Translations under genes and position numbers: made by a program
Shown here: positions 5,945-63,196 of the stretch, one piece after another
Numbering within the stretch: the stretch's first letter is position 1
Layout: each line of letters begins with the position of its first letter
Source: Patescibacteria group bacterium
GTDB taxonomy: Bacteria > Patescibacteriota > JABMPQ01 > JAQVVF01
Direction of reading: 5' to 3'
DNA length: 64,000 nt
Assembly: GCA_041662665.1 (NCBI GenBank)
Contig: JBAZSC010000001.1
Location: forward strand, 129,511 to 193,510
Notes under the pieces: generated by a model
What the model saw: only the letters and a program-made list of their open reading frames with translations
Database searches by the model: none
What the model was told of the DNA's origin: nothing

Positions 5945-8212
5945 ATGTTAAAACAAAGAAACAGTTTTAGAATATTTTGTATTTGCCTTGCCATTTTTTT
6001 GGGAGGCTTTTTTATTTGGCCAAATATTAGTTTTGCGAGTTTTCAAGATGTTATTATTAACGAACTAATGTGGATGGGATCAAGCGAATTTGGCTCAACT
6101 GATGAATGGCTGGAATTAAAAAATTTAACAAATCAAGATATTGATTTTAGTCAGACAAATTTCGCAATCTTCAAAAATGACGCAATAATGTTATCCATTA
6201 ATAATGGCTTTCTTAAGGCAAATGATTATTTTTTAATTTCCAGAAAAGATAAAGATAATTCTATTTTAAATATTAATCCTGATTTAGTTGCATCTTTTAC
6301 ATTAAATAATACTGAAACAAATTATAAATTGTATGATTCTGGAAATAATTTAATTGATGAAATTAAAGCGCCATTAGCTGGTCTTAATAATGAAACAAAA
6401 GTTTCAATGGAAAGAAATCAAGAGCCAGACAATGGTTTGCTTGCAACGGACTGGCATAATGCGCAAACAAAAATTAATTTAGATGAAAATTCAACTGCAC
6501 TAGCAACTCCAAAATCAGAAAATAGCCAGACTCAACAACAGCCAGAAATTTTTCCAGATCAAATATTTATTAATGAAATTCTGCCAAATCCCAAAGATTC
6601 AGATGATGCTGAATTTATTGAGCTTTATAATAATAATTCATTTGAAGTTGATTTATTAAATTGGCAAATTGGCGATAGCACAACTTCTCGTTACATAATC
6701 AAAGCTTCTGATTTCGCAGACACAAAAATTAAATCTAAAAATTATTTTCTTTTGCCAAAATCAATTACTAATTTAACATTAAATAATGATTTAGATTCTG
6801 TAAAAATTTATCAGCCAAATCAAAATTTATTAAATCAAATTGATTATCAAAATTGTTTAGAAGGTCAAAGCTATAACAAACTTAGCGATAATAATTGGCA
6901 ATGGTCAACGACTTTAACGCCAAATTCAGCAAATATAATTACAACGCCAACTGAAATTATTGATGATCAAAATAATAATCCAGTTGAAATAAAAGAGGAA
7001 GAATTAACAATTCCAGCTGGTCCATATTCTAAAAAAATAATTATTACCGAATTTTTGCCAAATCCAAAAGGATCAGATTCAGAATTAAAAGGCGAATTTA
7101 TAGAAATAAAAAATGTTGATTCAAAAAATATAGATCTCTATGGCTGGTACATTGATGATCAAAAAGATGGTTCAACGCCTTATCAAATAAAAAATCATTT
7201 GCAATTAAAACCAAATCAATATTATGTTTTTTATAAAGGCGAAACAAAATTATCTTTAAATAATTCTAATGAATCTGCCAGAATTTTATTGCCAGACAAA
7301 AAAGTTCTGCAAGAAATAAAATTTACAGGCACTGCAAAAGAAGCCGAGTCTTACGCGCTCAAAGATAATAAATGGCAATGGACAACGACTTTAACGCCTG
7401 GCAAAGATAACATTATAAAACAACAAAACAACGAAACAACAAAACAAGACGAAAACACCGAAACACCAGAACAAAAAAACACCGAAACAAACGTCATGAC
7501 AATCAAAGAAGTTCGCGGTTTAAAACGTTATGACACTTTAAAAACAACTGGCATTGTTATTGTTCCTCCAAAAACAATTTCTCAAACTTCATTCTATATT
7601 CAAGACGAAACAGCTGGCATCCAAATTTATTTTTCCAAAAAAGATTTTCCAAATTTAAAATTAGGCGACAAAATTGAAGTTAGCGGAAAATTATCAGAAG
7701 CCTCAAATGAAAAAAGAATTTTAATTGCTAGCAAAGACGATTTTAAAATTTTAGCCAATAATCAAAATTTGAAGCCTGCGCAAATTGAAACTGGCAAAGT
7801 TTCTGAAGATTTGGAAGGAGAATTTGTCATAACTTCTGGCCAATTAGAAAAATCAGTTGGTGGAACATTCTATATCAATGATGGTTCAAAGACTCTCAAA
7901 GTTTATATTCCAACAGATTCGAAAATAGAAAAACCGAAATTAAAAAAAGGCGATTGGGTAACAGTTCAAGGCATTATCAGCGAGACATCAAGCGGTTATC
8001 GTTTAATTCCTCGTTTTACAAGCGACATCAAAGCTGGAAAATTTTCTTTAAATCCAAGTCTTGGTCTAACCCAAATTCCAAAAGCCGGAGCAGATTCCAA
8101 AATATTTCTAATTTTATCTTTTGCAATCATTTTAATTTATTTATCAAAAGTATATGCCAAAAGCATTAGAACGAAAATTAAAGAAACAAGCCAAGAAAAA
8201 AGGTCTAGGTAA
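5945..8212 (+). CDS. surface-anchored protein with lamin-tail-domain (LTD) repeats and a C-terminal OB-fold-like region; possible extracellular DNA-binding protein
   Basis: ATG at 5945 lies 5 nt after AAGGAGGG. Signal peptide LAIFLGGFFIWPNISFA. Three LTD-like segments (INELMWMGSSEFGSTDEWLELKN; INEILPNPKDSDDAEFIELYN; ITEFLPNPKGSDSELKGEFIEIKN). The C-terminal third (YIQDETAGIQIYF...WVTVQGII) looks like an OB fold, followed by a terminal TM anchor. No nuclease catalytic domain was seen. Confidence 0.6.
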   Translation: MLKQRNSFRIFCICLAIFLGGFFIWPNISFASFQDVIINELMWMGSSEFGSTDEWLELKNLTNQDIDFSQTNFAIFKNDAIMLSINNGFLKANDYFLISRKDKDNSILNINPDLVASFTLNNTETNYKLYDSGNNLIDEIKAPLAGLNNETKVSMERNQEPDNGLLATDWHNAQTKINLDENSTALATPKSENSQTQQQPEIFPDQIFINEILPNPKDSDDAEFIELYNNNSFEVDLLNWQIGDSTTSRYIIKASDFADTKIKSKNYFLLPKSITNLTLNNDLDSVKIYQPNQNLLNQIDYQNCLEGQSYNKLSDNNWQWSTTLTPNSANIITTPTEIIDDQNNNPVEIKEEELTIPAGPYSKKIIITEFLPNPKGSDSELKGEFIEIKNVDSKNIDLYGWYIDDQKDGSTPYQIKNHLQLKPNQYYVFYKGETKLSLNNSNESARILLPDKKVLQEIKFTGTAKEAESYALKDNKWQWTTTLTPGKDNIIKQQNNETTKQDENTETPEQKNTETNVMTIKEVRGLKRYDTLKTTGIVIVPPKTISQTSFYIQDETAGIQIYFSKKDFPNLKLGDKIEVSGKLSEASNEKRILIASKDDFKILANNQNLKPAQIETGKVSEDLEGEFVITSGQLEKSVGGTFYINDGSKTLKVYIPTDSKIEKPKLKKGDWVTVQGIISETSSGYRLIPRFTSDIKAGKFSLNPSLGLTQIPKAGADSKIFLILSFAIILIYLSKVYAKSIRTKIKETSQEKRSR

Positions 8213-35829: not shown

Positions 35830-36897
35830 ATGTCAAATAAAAATCAAAATGTCTCTGAATTGAGACAAGATATCGTCTCCAAAAACTGGGTCGTTATTGC
35901 GTCAGGCAGATCAAAAAGACCAAAAACCTATCAAGGAATAAAAGTTGCTGTTTTAGAACAGCCAAAAAAAGATTGTCCATTTTGCAATTTTGATAAACAG
36001 CCTGACACTCATGTCACTTTAATTCATCCTTTAATTCCAAATGATCCATATATTGCTGAATTAAAAAAAGAAGGCAACCCTTTGCCTACCTGGAAAAAAG
36101 AGCCATATAGCATCATTGATGTCCAAAACAAATTTCCAGCTTTTGTGTCAGATCAAAAATTTACCGAAAAACAAGTTGGACCTTACAAGGTATTGCCTGG
36201 CTTTGGCTATCATGAAGTCATAATTCCAGCTTCACATAACAAAACTTATGGTCAGTTAGCAGATTCAAGAGTCAAAGAAATAATTGATGTTTTTCAAGCT
36301 CGCTATTTAGCTTTAGCCAAAGAACCTCATATCGATTACATTTCTATAATTCATAATCACAGACCAGAAGCAGGCGCATCAGTTGCTCATCCTCATTCTC
36401 AGCTTTTTGCAATTCCAGTTATTCCAAAAGATATTAGAAATTCTTTGCATGGCTCAAAAAAATATTTTGCCGAACATGGAAAATGTCCACATTGTGAAAT
36501 TTTAGAATGGGAGAGAGAAAAAAAAGTTCGCGTGATTTTTGAAAATGATGATTTTATTGCCATCTGTCCATTTACATCTGTTGTTGCTTTTGAAGTCAGA
36601 ATTTATCCAAAGCTTCACTCGCCATATTTTGAAAGAATCGAAGATACAGAAAAAATAAATCTCGCCAAAGCATTAAAATTTTCTTTAAACAAACTTTATA
36701 AGGCTTTAAATGATCCGCCATTTAATTTTTTTATCCATACCGCACCAGCTGATGAGCAGAATCATGATCATTATCATTGGCATATTGAAATTTTGCCAAA
36801 AGTCACAATCTGGGCTGGCTTTGAATTATCAACAGGTATTGAAATTTCAACAGTCGAACCAGAAGAAGCTGCAAAGCTACTTCGAGATACTAAGTAA
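35830..36897 (+). CDS. GalT-family (HIT-like) hexose-1-phosphate uridylyltransferase-like protein
   Basis: CPFCNFDKQPD (zinc site) and SVAHPHSQLFAIP (HPH.Q active-site motif of galactose-1-phosphate uridylyltransferase). Confidence 0.6.
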   Translation: MSNKNQNVSELRQDIVSKNWVVIASGRSKRPKTYQGIKVAVLEQPKKDCPFCNFDKQPDTHVTLIHPLIPNDPYIAELKKEGNPLPTWKKEPYSIIDVQNKFPAFVSDQKFTEKQVGPYKVLPGFGYHEVIIPASHNKTYGQLADSRVKEIIDVFQARYLALAKEPHIDYISIIHNHRPEAGASVAHPHSQLFAIPVIPKDIRNSLHGSKKYFAEHGKCPHCEILEWEREKKVRVIFENDDFIAICPFTSVVAFEVRIYPKLHSPYFERIEDTEKINLAKALKFSLNKLYKALNDPPFNFFIHTAPADEQNHDHYHWHIEILPKVTIWAGFELSTGIEISTVEPEEAAKLLRDTK

Positions 36898-36965: not shown

Positions 36966-37085
36966 AAAAACAAATGTCATCCTGAGCCAAAGCTTCGGAT
37001 CCCGAGAATAAGAAAATAATTACGGGATTCTTCCTGCCCGCAGTGCTACAGCGTTGCAGGCGGGCGGCTTTGGCCTCAGAATGAC
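36966..37085. repeat. GC-rich nested hairpin element (copy 1 of 2)
   Basis: The outer stem is gtcatcctgagccaaagc...gctttggcctcagaatgac and the inner stem ggatcccg...cgggattc. It also contains cctgcccgc..gcgggcgg. A second copy with the same outer and inner stems lies at 60553-60630. Confidence 0.55.
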
Positions 37086-37142
37086 GCGAAATTTTTCATT
37101 TTGCATTTATAATTTTTAATTTTTTGAGAGGTGGTGATAATT

Positions 37143-42990: not shown

Positions 42991-43148
42991 AATTAATAAA
43001 ATAGTTTTAGTCAGTTTCTGTGTTTTCTGCGTTAGATTCTGCGTCATTCTGCGAAAACGTTTTAAGCGCAGAAAAACGCAGAATCTAACGCAGAGTCAAA
43101 AATTTTTATAACAAAATTTTTGACGCAGAAAAAATAGCCACAATCAAC

Positions 43149-58850: not shown

Positions 58851-58940
58851 AATAAAAAATTTAAAAGCCTGCCAAAATTAAGCAGGTTTTTTGTTTGCCA
58901 AAAACAAAGTTTAAAGATAAACTATATTAAGACTCAAGCA

Positions 58941-59160
58941 ACGTCATAAGGTTCGGCCTTTTACTTGAAGAAATAAAATATTTTTTATATAAAGAACTTA
59001 GCTAGCAATATGAGCGTGGATTTTTGATAAGGCCGAACCTTTTACGTCTAGTTCATAGATTTAAAAGGTTCGGCTTTGTACATGTTTCCAAATTAGTTTT
59101 GCTTGCCAAGATAACAAAAAAATATTATCCATCCTTTAAGTAAAAAGCCGAACCTTGTGG
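58941..59160. repeat. two tandem MITE-like units with 13-20-bp GC-rich terminal inverted repeats (core aaggttcggcYtt)
   Basis: Core copies at about 58949-58962 (+), 59029-59042 (-), 59065-59077 (+) and 59145-59156 (-). Each +/- pair is about 80 nt apart. The first pair has extended arms acgtcataaggttcggcctt / aaggccgaaccttttacgt. Confidence 0.5.
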
Positions 59161-60552: not shown

Positions 60553-60630
60553 TTGTCATCCTGAGCGAAGCGAAGGATCCCATGACTAAACAAAAAAATC
60601 ATGGGATTCTTCGCTGCGGCTCAGAATGAC
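60553..60630. repeat. GC-rich nested hairpin element (copy 2 of 2)
   Basis: gtcatcctgagcgaagcgaaggatcccatgac...gtcatgggattcttcgctgcggctcagaatgac. Same outer and inner stems as 36966-37085. Lies between the convergent radA and 60694 genes. Confidence 0.55.
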
Positions 60631-60640
60631 GATGCAAAAA

Positions 60641-60670
60641 TAAAAAAACTAGCAAATGCTAGTTAAAACG
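60641..60670 (-). terminator. rho-independent terminator for the minus-strand small gene (AACTAGCAaatGCTAGTT + T-run on the minus strand)
   Basis: 8-bp stem with an A-run on the plus strand, which reads as a T-run on the minus strand. Confidence 0.55.
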
Positions 60671-60693: not shown

Positions 60694-60921
60694 CTAGAGG
60701 AGACCTTTCTGATTCAAGATTGCGAGATGATTGTGATCCCATTTCATACGAGGTACCATCTTCATTGCTTCGCGAACACGACTCAGCTCTTCAGGAGTGC
60801 TAGCAGATCTGACATGAGCGAACAACTTTTCACGAAACATGATACCTGGAAAAGAAATTTCACCCTTTACATACGACTGAGTCAAAGCAACAGGATCTTC
60901 ATTCTGAAACTTGAGTGCCAT
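60694..60921 (-). CDS. small hypothetical protein (75 aa) in a GC-rich island
   Basis: Start MALKFQNEDPV lies 9 nt after a GGAGG SD. Has its own terminator. The overlapping plus-strand 112-aa ORF was judged spurious. The track ORF extends upstream to 61005. Confidence 0.4.
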   Translation of the reverse strand: MALKFQNEDPVALTQSYVKGEISFPGIMFREKLFAHVRSASTPEELSRVREAMKMVPRMKWDHNHLAILNQKGLL

Positions 60922-61060
60922 TTCCCTTTTCCTCCGAAGCCCGCCAAAGTTTGTAAAGGCGGGGAAAAGGCCTTCCGCTGTTTCTCGCGGAAAGCCGGAA
61001 ACCATGAGAAAAACAACTTGTTAATATAATATAACAAAATCAATATAAAGCAAGTCCTTT

Positions 61061-63196
61061 TTACTCAAAATGAGTAATTTGGTCAAAATCAGCCATTTTT
61101 TCCCTTAATAGAGGGAATTTTTTTATGTCATTTTTCGCCACAAAATTTTCTGCTTCTGCTTTTGCCAGTTTTAACAAATTTACATCCATTAAAGAAGCCA
61201 TTTTTAAATCAGGCAAACCAGATTGCCTAATTCCATAAACTTCACCAGGACCGCGCAATTCCAGATCTTTTTCTGCTAAAACAAATCCATCATCGCAATC
61301 AACCAAAGCCATTAGTCTATCATAAGATTTTTGTGACATAGAATCAGAAAACAGAAAGCAAAAAGACTGTTTTTCACTTCTGCCAACACGTCCTCTGAAT
61401 TGATGAAGTTGTGACAATCCAAAACGTTCTGCTCCTTCAATCATCATGATTGTTGCATTTGGAAAATCAATTCCAACTTCAATTACAGATGTTGAAACTA
61501 ATATCTTGACTTCATTATTTTTAAATTTTAATAGTGTTTTTTCTTTTTCTTCTTTTTTTAATTTGCCGTGCATCATTGCGATTTCAAATTCCGGAAAAAT
61601 TTCTTTGCTTAATTTTTCATATTCTTCTTCAACTGCTTTCACATCATCCCATTGATTATTTTGAGGACTAAATTCTTTTTCATCATTTTTTTCTTCGCCT
61701 GCCTTAATTCTTGGACAAACAACAAAAACCTGCCTGCCTAATTTTATTTTTTCTCTAATAAATTCATAAGCTTTATCTCGATTATATGGTGCCACTAATT
61801 TAGTTAGAATTTTTTTTCGTCCAAATGGTTTTTCTTTCAAAATGGAAATATCCAAATCACCATAAAGTCCTAATGCTAAAGTTCTTGGAATTGGTGTTGC
61901 TGTCATTGATAACAGATGCGGCGTTTTTTTCGTAGAAACGTTGCAATGCAACGTCGCTACGGCGTTCAATTTTTTTAATTTCGCTCTTTGCTCAACACCA
62001 AAACGATGCTGTTCATCAATTACAGTTAAAGCCAAATTTTTAAATTTTACATCTTCTTGAATAACTGCGTGCGTGCCGATCAAAATGTCAACATCGCCAT
62101 TTTTAATTTTATTCAACAAAATCTTTTTACTGACAGTCTTGTCATTGAATTTACGATCAACGCGAGTCAACAATGCCAGCGTAGCGACAGGGCAGTGCCC
62201 TGTCGCTACGAGTTTTTGTATTGTTTCAAAGTGTTGTTTAGCCAAAATTTCTGTTGGCGCCATTAAAATTGATTGTTTTTTCTGATTCGCAATCAAATAC
62301 ATTGCCATCAATGCGACAACAGTTTTGCCAGATCCAACATCACCTTCCAACAATCTATTCATTGGCTTATTTTTTTCTAAATCTAAGAAAATTTCCCAAG
62401 CTGATATCTTTTGATCTTTTGTTAATTTGAAGGGTAGGGAATCAACAAATTTTTTAATTAAATCTTTATTAAATTTAATTTTAAATGCTTTATTTTCCTG
62501 CCATTTTTTCTTTTTTAATAAATTATTTAATTGTAATAAAAATAATTCATCAAAAGCTAATCTTAACCTTGCTTTTTTCAAAATTTCTAAATTATCTGGA
62601 AAATGAATTTGTTTTAATGCCTCGCCTAAATTTATCAAGCTTAATTTTTCTTTAATTTCTTCTGGCAAAAAGTCATCAAATTTATCCGACAATTTTAGCA
62701 ATGGTCTTAGAATAAATCTTAAATATTTTGAAGACATGCCATTTGTTTCAGAATAAACTGGCAAAATTTTTCCTGACCCATCGTTAAATTTTTCAAAAGC
62801 AGGGGAATTCATTGATACCGAATTATAATTCAATTCAACTTTGCCATTCAATGTTACAAATGTCCCAACGCGAAAATATTTTTCTAAATATGGCTGATTA
62901 AACCAAACAATTTTAAGATCGCCAGATTCATCAGAAATTTTCGCTTCAGTCAAAGTCAGCCATCTTTTTGAAGTCGGCTTGTTTTTTATTGATTTGATCA
63001 TTCCTCTGATTGTCTGTTTCTCATTTATTTTTAAATTTTTGATTAAAGTAATATTGCTAAAATCATCATAGCGAAAAGGAAAATAAAAAAATAGATCAGA
63101 AACAGTTTTCAATTCTAATCTTTCTAAAGCACGTTTATGCTTCAGATCAAATTTCCGCAAACTATTCAATTTTGTTGATAATCTAACATTTTTCAT
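61061..63196 (-). CDS. recG: ATP-dependent DNA helicase RecG
   Basis: LLEGDVGSGKTVVALMAMYLIA...MAPTEILAKQH (motif I/Ia), VIDEQHRFGV (motif II), LSMTATPIPRTLAL (motif III). N-terminal wedge domain. Carries two in-frame 10-aa palindromic insertions (see findings). Confidence 0.85.
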   Translation of the reverse strand: MKNVRLSTKLNSLRKFDLKHKRALERLELKTVSDLFFYFPFRYDDFSNITLIKNLKINEKQTIRGMIKSIKNKPTSKRWLTLTEAKISDESGDLKIVWFNQPYLEKYFRVGTFVTLNGKVELNYNSVSMNSPAFEKFNDGSGKILPVYSETNGMSSKYLRFILRPLLKLSDKFDDFLPEEIKEKLSLINLGEALKQIHFPDNLEILKKARLRLAFDELFLLQLNNLLKKKKWQENKAFKIKFNKDLIKKFVDSLPFKLTKDQKISAWEIFLDLEKNKPMNRLLEGDVGSGKTVVALMAMYLIANQKKQSILMAPTEILAKQHFETIQKLVATGHCPVATLALLTRVDRKFNDKTVSKKILLNKIKNGDVDILIGTHAVIQEDVKFKNLALTVIDEQHRFGVEQRAKLKKLNAVATLHCNVSTKKTPHLLSMTATPIPRTLALGLYGDLDISILKEKPFGRKKILTKLVAPYNRDKAYEFIREKIKLGRQVFVVCPRIKAGEEKNDEKEFSPQNNQWDDVKAVEEEYEKLSKEIFPEFEIAMMHGKLKKEEKEKTLLKFKNNEVKILVSTSVIEVGIDFPNATIMMIEGAERFGLSQLHQFRGRVGRSEKQSFCFLFSDSMSQKSYDRLMALVDCDDGFVLAEKDLELRGPGEVYGIRQSGLPDLKMASLMDVNLLKLAKAEAENFVAKNDIKKFPLLREKMADFDQITHFE
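61931..61961. repeat. 31-nt GC-rich palindrome inside recG (cgtagaaacgttgca-a-tgcaacgtcgctacg)
   Basis: Imperfect inverted repeat with GTAG...CTAC termini. On the minus strand it encodes VATLHCNVST in frame. Confidence 0.6.
62180..62210. repeat. 31-nt GC-rich perfect palindrome inside recG (cgtagcgacagggca-g-tgccctgtcgctacg)
   Basis: 15-bp perfect arms with GTAG...CTAC termini. On the minus strand it encodes VATGHCPVAT in frame. Confidence 0.65.

Follow-up and report, generated by a model that had tools for sequence, protein, structure and literature searches.

Two GC-rich nested hairpins in a Patescibacteria genome as putative inverted pairs of Ssn-related motifs

The closest described system is that of the Ssn nucleases and their repeats (Chenal et al. 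2025). The dRS3 palindrome of Neisseria forms part of the repeat NTS (CGTCATTCCCGCGMAVGCGGGAATCYRG), and Neisseria SsnA is a 94-aa single-domain GIY-YIG nuclease of the cd10448 group (PMC11893778). SsnA binds NTS as single-stranded DNA only, and on one strand only (the strand reading GTCAT); its nick falls a few nucleotides 5' of NTS (PMC11893778). Cleavage depends mostly on the three bases that precede the palindrome and binding on the C that directly follows it, and the enzyme is inactive on RNA and on double-stranded DNA, RNA not being bound (PMC11893778). Homologues of ssn are found in many phyla, flanked by "Ssn-related motifs" (SRM), and the authors likened the arrangement NTS-ssnA-NTS to an insertion sequence and to REP/RAYT (PMC11893778). 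The Neisseria system restricts incoming single-stranded transforming DNA, and the characterised Ssn enzymes are those of Neisseria and Wolbachia (PMC11893778). Our literature search found no later paper on SRM or Ssn elements beyond Chenal et al. 2025.

Two other systems share part of the architecture described below. REP/REPIN/BIME repeats also consist of palindromes with an oriented leader, arranged as inverted doublets, which proliferate in intergenic DNA and flank a single nuclease gene; the enzyme of REP/RAYT is a Y1 HUH transposase, whereas here it is a GIY-YIG nuclease. The ends of IS200/IS605 are likewise imperfect hairpins that are recognised on one strand of single-stranded DNA and cut a few nucleotides 5'. 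However, both IS200/IS605 hairpins lie on the same strand and the enzyme is TnpA, whereas the arms studied here are inverted, with their cleavable forms on opposite strands.

The window, that is, the whole stretch of 64,000 nucleotides of Patescibacteria DNA that was analysed, contains two elements that we interpret as inverted doublets of SRM-type hairpin repeats (no strand assigned to either). Copy 1 (36976-37085, 110 nt) is located between a galT-like gene, with its stop at 36897, and hup, with its start at 37131 or 37143, and begins 79 nt past galT. Copy 2 (60555-60630, 76 nt) follows radA and starts 26 nt past its stop codon. A sequence-only reading had described two elements with common outer and inner stems and differing loops, and both the sequence and shuffling bore this out; its coordinates were right apart from padding, as the start at 36966 takes in 10 nt of flank and copy 2 had been started at 60553. 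Both copies have an identical left outer arm, GTCATCCTGAGC, whereas their right outer arms differ: copy 2 reads GCTCAGAATGAC, and copy 1 reads CCTCAGAATGAC, with an extra G that makes a one-base bulge. The inner stem GGATCCC/GGGATTC is common to the two copies and the loop contents are unlike, copy 1 being longer through a 33-nt GC-rich hairpin (~37033-37067) within its right arm. The predicted RNA folds were far more stable than those of shuffled sequence, with -54.1 kcal/mol (z = -6.0) for copy 1 and -48.8 kcal/mol (z = -10.8) for copy 2. The string GTCATYCTGAG occurs four times in the window, once in each of the four arms, compared with 0.04 occurrences predicted from dinucleotide shuffles. 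The elements had been called strikingly GC-rich for this genome, and indeed the arms have a G+C content of 53-57% compared to ~31% across the window.

Each arm is its own hairpin of ~25 nt, GTC-ATCCT-GA-GC-GAA-GC-GA-AGGAT-C, with two tandem G.A pairs. Mini-hairpins of the GC-GAA-GC kind that carry such pairs are well known as stable motifs of single-stranded DNA. Arm 2L (60555..60579, + strand) is the canonical 25-mer, GTCATCCTGAGCGAAGCGAAGGATC, and shows the leader GTC, the stem ATCCT/AGGAT, the tandem G.A pairs, the GC-GAA-GC mini-hairpin and the trailing C; it scored 45.6 bits (E = 3e-9) with the covariance model R1. Arm 2R (60605..60630, GTCATTCTGAGCCGCAGCGAAGAATC in the - strand reading) has the stem ATTCT/AGAAT and scored 39.4 bits (E = 1e-7) with R1. 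It differs from arm 2L by C6-to-T and G22-to-A, two changes that compensate each other inside the arm. Arm 1L (36976..37001, + strand, GTCATCCTGAGCCAAAGCTTCGGATC) is a degenerate SRM with an R1 score of 15.9 bits (E = 0.08). It retains the leader GTCAT, the stem ATCC/GGAT and the trailing C, but the near-invariant CGAAG has become CTTCG, the apex is GC-CAAA-GC, and the nested hairpin of arm 1R is missing. Arm 1R (37026..37085) reads on the - strand as GTCATTCTGAGGCCAAAGCC, a 33-nt insert and AAGAATC, giving a stem ATTCT/AGAAT with an expanded apex that forms two apical sub-hairpins when folded as DNA. The folds place the insert, a nested GC-rich hairpin (CCTGCCCGC...GCGGGCGG, 37033..37067, no strand assigned), in the apical part of the arm. 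Because of this insert, R1 gave no match to arm 1R; expanded apical stem-loops are common across related arms in other genomes. Copy 2 thus looks intact by its two R1 scores, and copy 1 looks decayed, with the CGAAG of arm 1L lost and arm 1R interrupted, and may be inert.

The arm hairpin is supported by sequence covariation. We compared two-armed units from other genomes (98 units): within an arm, a change at positions 4-8 was always matched by one at positions 20-24, and the types seen were ATCCT/AGGAT, ATTCT/AGAAT, ATTCC/GGAAT, ATGCT/AGCAT, ATCCC/GGGAT and ACCCT/AGGGT. The exact reverse complement of an arm's own positions 4-8 was found downstream in 209 of 260 distinct arms, all from loci whose retrieval had made no use of the motif, as opposed to 13 on average when the 5-mer of another arm type was used as a control. 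Two inner pairs that had no part in arm selection also covaried in an alignment of 112 arms, one as GC (88) and AU (21), the other as CG (71), GC (16) and UA (13). In the arm alignment, 98.3% of the cells were paired, and covariation was observed at five of the seven pairs, including the two unused for selection. Single-sequence DNA folds of the arms showed no significant stability under nearest-neighbour parameters, and the evidence for the arm hairpin is therefore the covariation. A check for covariation had been suggested for the two copies; it was found within each arm, and on opposite strands for the two arms. These data indicate that selection acts on the arm and not on the long hairpin.

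The two copies had also been said to share the same non-Watson-Crick positions. The positions are indeed common to both copies, but their reading changes, since the pairs are compensated inside each arm. In both copies, the left arm is of the ATCCT/AGGAT type and the right arm of the ATTCT/AGAAT type, each perfectly paired in itself, and the difference between the two types accounts for the one C.A mismatch and the one G.T wobble seen in the long hairpin. The combination of ATCCT with ATTCT is the commonest in the family, yet it showed no excess over random pairing.

The highly stable RNA folds and the covarying stems are also features expected of a structured non-coding RNA, such as a small RNA, a cis-regulatory element or a ribozyme, and a "structured RNA element" had been one of the identities proposed. 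We ran the Rfam comparison that had been suggested, and it showed nothing meaningful in the window or at the two loci: there were 0 matches at the gathering threshold in the whole window, and permissive scans of both loci yielded nothing but spurious hits to miRNA and snoRNA families, the miRNA-type ones reaching at most 35.8 bits against a threshold of 99. In addition, the arms are sense on opposite strands, and no single transcript therefore has both in the G/A-rich form, the covariation being that of one hairpin per arm. The loops are unconserved between the elements, and the characterised SsnA does not bind RNA (PMC11893778). An RNA identity was therefore not borne out, and we regard it as highly improbable. 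A hammerhead-like reading of CUGAGGA...GAA was also considered and dropped, as it had neither a three-way junction nor support from Rfam.

Comparison with the SRM/NTS repeats showed the same overall plan. Both have an H-GTC-A-T leader, an imperfect palindrome and a C-Y tail; both are intergenic, multi-copy and found in many phyla; and both occur as inverted repeats on the two sides of a single-domain GIY-YIG gene of ~94 aa. All four window arms read (T/C)GTCAT, then the palindrome, then a C-C tail (GGATC-C or GAATC-C). Across the family, the base before GTC is T in 71%, C in 17% and G in 6% of 633 arms, and the base 3' of the palindrome is C in 98% of 330 arms, the next being nearly always T or C. 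The bases before and after the palindrome are the ones described as critical for cleavage and binding by the characterised enzyme (PMC11893778). The window arms thus have the SRM leader (H-GTC-W-Y), an imperfect palindrome of 20-50 nt, and a 3' cytosine followed by a pyrimidine. A single SRM measures roughly 25-60 nt. Association with a nuclease gene, which also belongs to the definition of SRM, is seen at the level of the family, and the window itself is without an ssn gene.

The palindromes themselves differ. The SRM/NTS core is TCCCGCG-MAV-GCGGGA, whereas here it is CCTGAGC-GAA-GCGAAGG, with tandem G.A pairs and a GNA triloop. The dRS3 of Neisseria, ATTCCC-N8-GGGAAT, forms the NTS core, and the equivalent role is played here by ATCCT-N11-AGGAT, which differs in core sequence and in taxon. 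Furthermore, as opposed to the published SRM, the identical 25-mer recurs across ~14 phyla among the matches listed and in viral contigs, and the host is a Patescibacteria genome of 31% G+C. The published string, HGTCWYN(0-2)YYVSBRHN(0-5)WNVSBRGN(0-2)RNCYNB, was built by hand from 29 genomes. It matched the Neisseria NTS and the Azospirillum repeats, but neither the four window arms nor the 25-mer, because it encodes a CCCGCG-type palindrome. As judged from these sequence features, the window elements are SRM of a variant sequence class and not new in kind. Both are very probably gene-less inverted SRM pairs with a short spacer between the arms, the full unit carrying an Ssn-type gene. A hitherto unexplained GC-rich palindrome in an AT-rich genome of the candidate phyla would thus become identifiable as a putative binding and cleavage site of Ssn nucleases. 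The nuclease acting on the window arms is itself putative, its enzymology being carried over from the Neisseria and Wolbachia enzymes.

We searched for the exact 25-mer of arm 2L in other genomes and found it at a minimum of 120 loci (at least 120, with ~0.001 expected by chance) in GTDB representative genomes and in 24 IMG/VR viral contigs. These two copies are clearly not the only ones: the description "two-copy" holds within the window and fails elsewhere, the motif being extremely widespread. About 14 phyla carry the exact 25-mer among the matches listed. The hosts listed are Acidobacteriota, Chloroflexota, Gemmatimonadota, Nitrospirota, Verrucomicrobiota, Planctomycetota, Bacteroidota, Bacillota, Alpha-, Beta- and Gammaproteobacteria, Bdellovibrionales, Omnitrophica, Patescibacteria and Eisenbacteria, and the cultured ones among them include Mucilaginibacter sp. 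SG564, Hymenobacter piscis, Paracnuella aquatica and Tunturiibacter gelidiferens. The motif-bearing contigs have a G+C content of 36-75%, and convergent pairs hold about half of the full arms in the motif-bearing genome loci. A literature search with the sequence strings returned only unrelated primer sequences.

Several loci showed a further pattern, in which the 5' half-motif GTCATYCTGAG followed by 8-12 variable bases forms tandem "stutter" arrays of 2-6 copies, with a period of 19-23 nt, before full arms. Such arrays were observed at L036 270-730, L057 5060-5180, L041 7070-7130, L078 3655-3720, L123 1690-1770 and L227 1198-1260 and 1839-1900, and the array in L036 is mirrored on the far side of the pair. 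We know of no mechanism that would produce them; repeated cycles of nicking and repair may have left them as footprints.

An all-against-all clustering of the ORFs from 144 motif-bearing loci revealed no enriched neighbour gene and no common transposase, and the largest cluster consisted of spurious ORFs reading through the repeats. Translations such as VILSEAKDL and SLRSAQDD are, we assume, common, and the motif presumably accounts for many spurious "hypothetical proteins". The link with a GIY-YIG gene was found through arm pairs that lie 300-1100 nt apart. Between the left and right arms of one Patescibacteria locus (L076) is a 93-aa GIY-YIG protein, and a 116-aa homologue of it lies between two arms in an Acidobacteriaceae locus (L081). 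The family comprises 1607 proteins at E < 1e-5, mostly of 92-95 aa. We then took 80 metagenome loci that had been fetched by GIY-YIG peptide patterns derived from the protein alignment alone. An arm core was present within 150 nt of the gene upstream in 73 of the 80, downstream in 73, and on both sides in 67, compared with fewer than one locus expected by chance by our estimate. In 62 delimited units, the distance from the end of the left arm to the start codon is usually between a few and a few tens of nucleotides, the right arm usually starts at the stop codon or shortly beyond it, and the whole unit (SRM, ~280-bp gene, inverted SRM) typically measures ~350-400 bp.

The associated protein is a single PF01541 domain of 92-95 aa (~93). 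Its invariant residues Y7, Y18 and E65 have the same spacing as Y6, Y17 and E64, the residues mutated in Neisseria SsnA. A homologue in Azospirillum lipoferum shows 47% identity to it (E = 7e-32), and the Azospirillum gene has on each side an inverted pair of CGTCATCCCCGCGAAGGCGGGGATCCAG, a repeat that matches the published SRM string. The nearest relatives in the PDB are UPF0213 proteins (E = 1e-7), and neither NCBIfam nor the PDB contained a specific family or an Ssn structure. Within the 64-kb window there is no ssn gene or gene fragment, and a peptide-pattern search of IMG/VR returned no Ssn homologues, though 24 of its viral contigs carry arms. At 6037-6500 of the Acidobacteriaceae locus, the arms beside the GIY-YIG gene are direct, not inverted, and have seven further bases, TGCGGTT, in common. 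A GIY-YIG homologue of Sinorhizobium meliloti (L226 1300-1990) lies between hflX and mazG and is flanked by CTCATCCCTGTGCTCGTCACAGGGATC repeats, which we take to resemble the rhizobial intergenic mosaic elements (RIME). If that likeness holds, RIMEs may be SRM-type repeats.

The identity of this gene bears on a reading of the elements as REP doublets (REPINs or BIMEs) mobilised by RAYT, a tyrosine HUH transposase related to IS200/IS605. The layout is certainly REP-like, with a palindromic unit of ~25 nt, a short conserved 5' leader, and inverted doublets that form a long hairpin and occur in many intergenic copies. However, the gene between the arms encodes GIY-YIG (PF01541) and not Y1_Tnp, and the clustering of the 144 loci yielded no common transposase. 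The leader is GTC(A), as opposed to GTAG or GGAG in REP. Furthermore, REP/RAYT pairs are lineage-specific, whereas the 25-mer is identical across phyla. A RAYT-mobilised origin is therefore hardly credible for these elements, and the reading as SRM pairs is preferred.

The RadA sequence places the window in a Patescibacteria MAG, and we compared the orthologous sites of close relatives. Copy 2 is absent from the orthologous site in four relatives with a RadA identity of 82-94%, which keep the order radA, small ORF, recG; the 3' end of radA and a small terminator align, and the filler at the site differs from lineage to lineage. One relative, whose GalT is 71% identical, lacks copy 1 between galT and hup. 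For relatives with 86% identity, two contigs reach only ~10 nt beyond the point at which copy 1 begins in the window; no arm was seen in them, and they are uninformative. Conversely, a pair precedes the radA start codon by 9 nt in a relative with 92% identity (L229), a position that is unoccupied in the window. An analogous pattern was observed for the Azospirillum module (pair, ssn, pair), which is an insertion of ~560 nt between sufB and sufC and is missing in three species with 95-97% identical flanks. In an independent (Logan) assembly, contigs of the same strain end within arm 2L and within copy 1, where a repeat would be expected to interrupt assembly. We also compared all fetched loci with one another by blastn to find filled and empty pairs; the single candidate obtained had nothing to do with the repeat. 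The spacers flanking the pairs are hypervariable intergenic DNA. On this comparison, pairs are evidently gained and lost among close relatives. The alternative proposal of a "miniature mobile palindrome" was therefore essentially right, with the additions that it is an ORF-less inverted pair, present in some relatives and absent in others, and that the unit is a pair of arm hairpins. The hairpins are a recognisable repeat and probably mobile.

The radA 3' spacer also contained other sequences in place of copy 2. In L230 (4350-4517), it holds another AT-rich palindromic repeat (TTCGCTAATCATTTGCGAATATTTGCAAAT...), and in L229 (4350-4484) and L232 a third sequence occupies the position. The radA 3' spacer is a hotspot for palindromic insertions.

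Conserved inverted termini around a variable interior, together with presence and absence among relatives, would also fit classical MITEs, in which deletion derivatives of an insertion sequence are moved by a DDE transposase that reads 25-bp inverted repeats as double-stranded DNA. However, no target-site duplication was visible in the flanks of 62 full-length units. The compensatory changes within an arm are unexpected for a double-stranded binding site, and the only gene between arms encodes a 93-aa GIY-YIG nuclease and no transposase. We consider a MITE origin very unlikely.

The sequence-only reading had placed both elements at "terminator positions". They are indeed both intergenic and just past gene ends (the distance is 79 nt for galT and 26 nt for radA), their stem-loops are very stable, and AATTTTTATTTTTT follows on the - strand of copy 2; the hairpins might therefore act as Rho-independent, possibly bidirectional, terminators or as stabilisers of mRNA 3' ends for galT, radA and the convergent genes. 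However, a consensus scan called no terminator at copy 1 or copy 2, and on the sense strand no U-tract comes right after the stem in either copy. The elements are absent from orthologous gene ends in relatives, where a separate small hairpin of the AT type with a T-run (60647-60664, - strand) is conserved without copy 2. Termination also explains neither the 25-mer in ~14 phyla among the matches listed nor the association with a nuclease gene. Termination as the basis of the elements is thus unlikely, and such a role would be at most incidental to the SRM pairs. The small hairpin itself, AACTAGCATTTGCTAGTT followed by TTTTTATTTT (AACTAGC...GCTAGTT and a T-run), lies at a distance of 17 nt from copy 2. 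It is retained in every relative examined, and transcription of the - strand small ORF and recG probably ends at it. That small ORF (60694-61005, - strand, 103 aa) lies between copy 2 and recG, and its counterparts in relatives are predicted as genes of 74-148 aa; no Pfam match is recorded for it, and the G+C content of the region is comparatively high.

If the Neisseria enzymology carries over, single-stranded DNA arising in replication, repair or DNA uptake would expose one cleavable SRM on each strand of a pair, at the 5' side, and nicks would fall just outside the pair, on opposite strands. Nicking by Ssn, followed by repair, could then cause pairs to multiply or vanish, in a dependence like that of REP doublets on RAYT. 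Gene-less pairs might be deletion derivatives of the full unit or landing sites for it, and any effect of the long hairpin on termination or on mRNA ends would be a by-product. It is conceivable, and we propose it tentatively, that SRM-ssn-SRM units and gene-less pairs are compact (~350-400 bp) selfish mobile elements, driven by a GIY-YIG nuclease of single-stranded DNA in place of a transposase, that form a class of their own and spread horizontally among at least 14 bacterial phyla and into phage genomes with a near-invariant 25-nt end. Episymbiotic Patescibacteria are thought to depend on DNA uptake, and the pairs in these hosts might be self-marking restriction sites for incoming single-stranded DNA.

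To the published account these data add an abundant SRM variant, with a 25-nt core identical in ~14 phyla among the matches listed, that the published string misses. They also add within-arm covariation with the arm as the selected unit, the stutter arrays, and gene-less pairs and pair-ssn-pair modules that behave as insertions in comparison with close relatives. If the elements are mobile through the nuclease, they would represent a new mechanistic class of bacterial mobile DNA, and also a source of matched pairs of enzyme and site for single-stranded DNA tools. The motif also accounts for contig breaks in metagenome assemblies.

Other repeats were observed in the window. An inverted repeat of 20 nt, TTCTGCGTTAGATTCTGCGT / ACGCAGAATCTAACGCAGAA, with the centre GCGTCATTCTGCG...CGCAGAATC, is located at 43027-43095 and matched the SRM arm model weakly (18.7 bits, E = 0.017); this may be either a decayed SRM or an operator or terminator with no relation to SRM. 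Upstream of radA (58940-59160), four exact copies of AAGGTTCGGC form two inverted pairs in a spacer that differs in relatives, and they look like another small repeat family. The recG gene (61061-63196, - strand) contains two GC-rich palindromes that start with GTAGCGAC and are in frame, at 61935-61960 and 62177-62209. One of them, CGTAGCGACAGGGCA-C-TGCCCTGTCGCTACG, lies in a hypervariable linker, and the other adds eight residues, NAVATLHC, that are absent in the RecG of four relatives. The string GTAGCGAC occurs three times, compared with 0.16 expected occurrences, and the recG palindromes may belong to a second, REP-like family with a GTAG leader that inserts into coding sequence.
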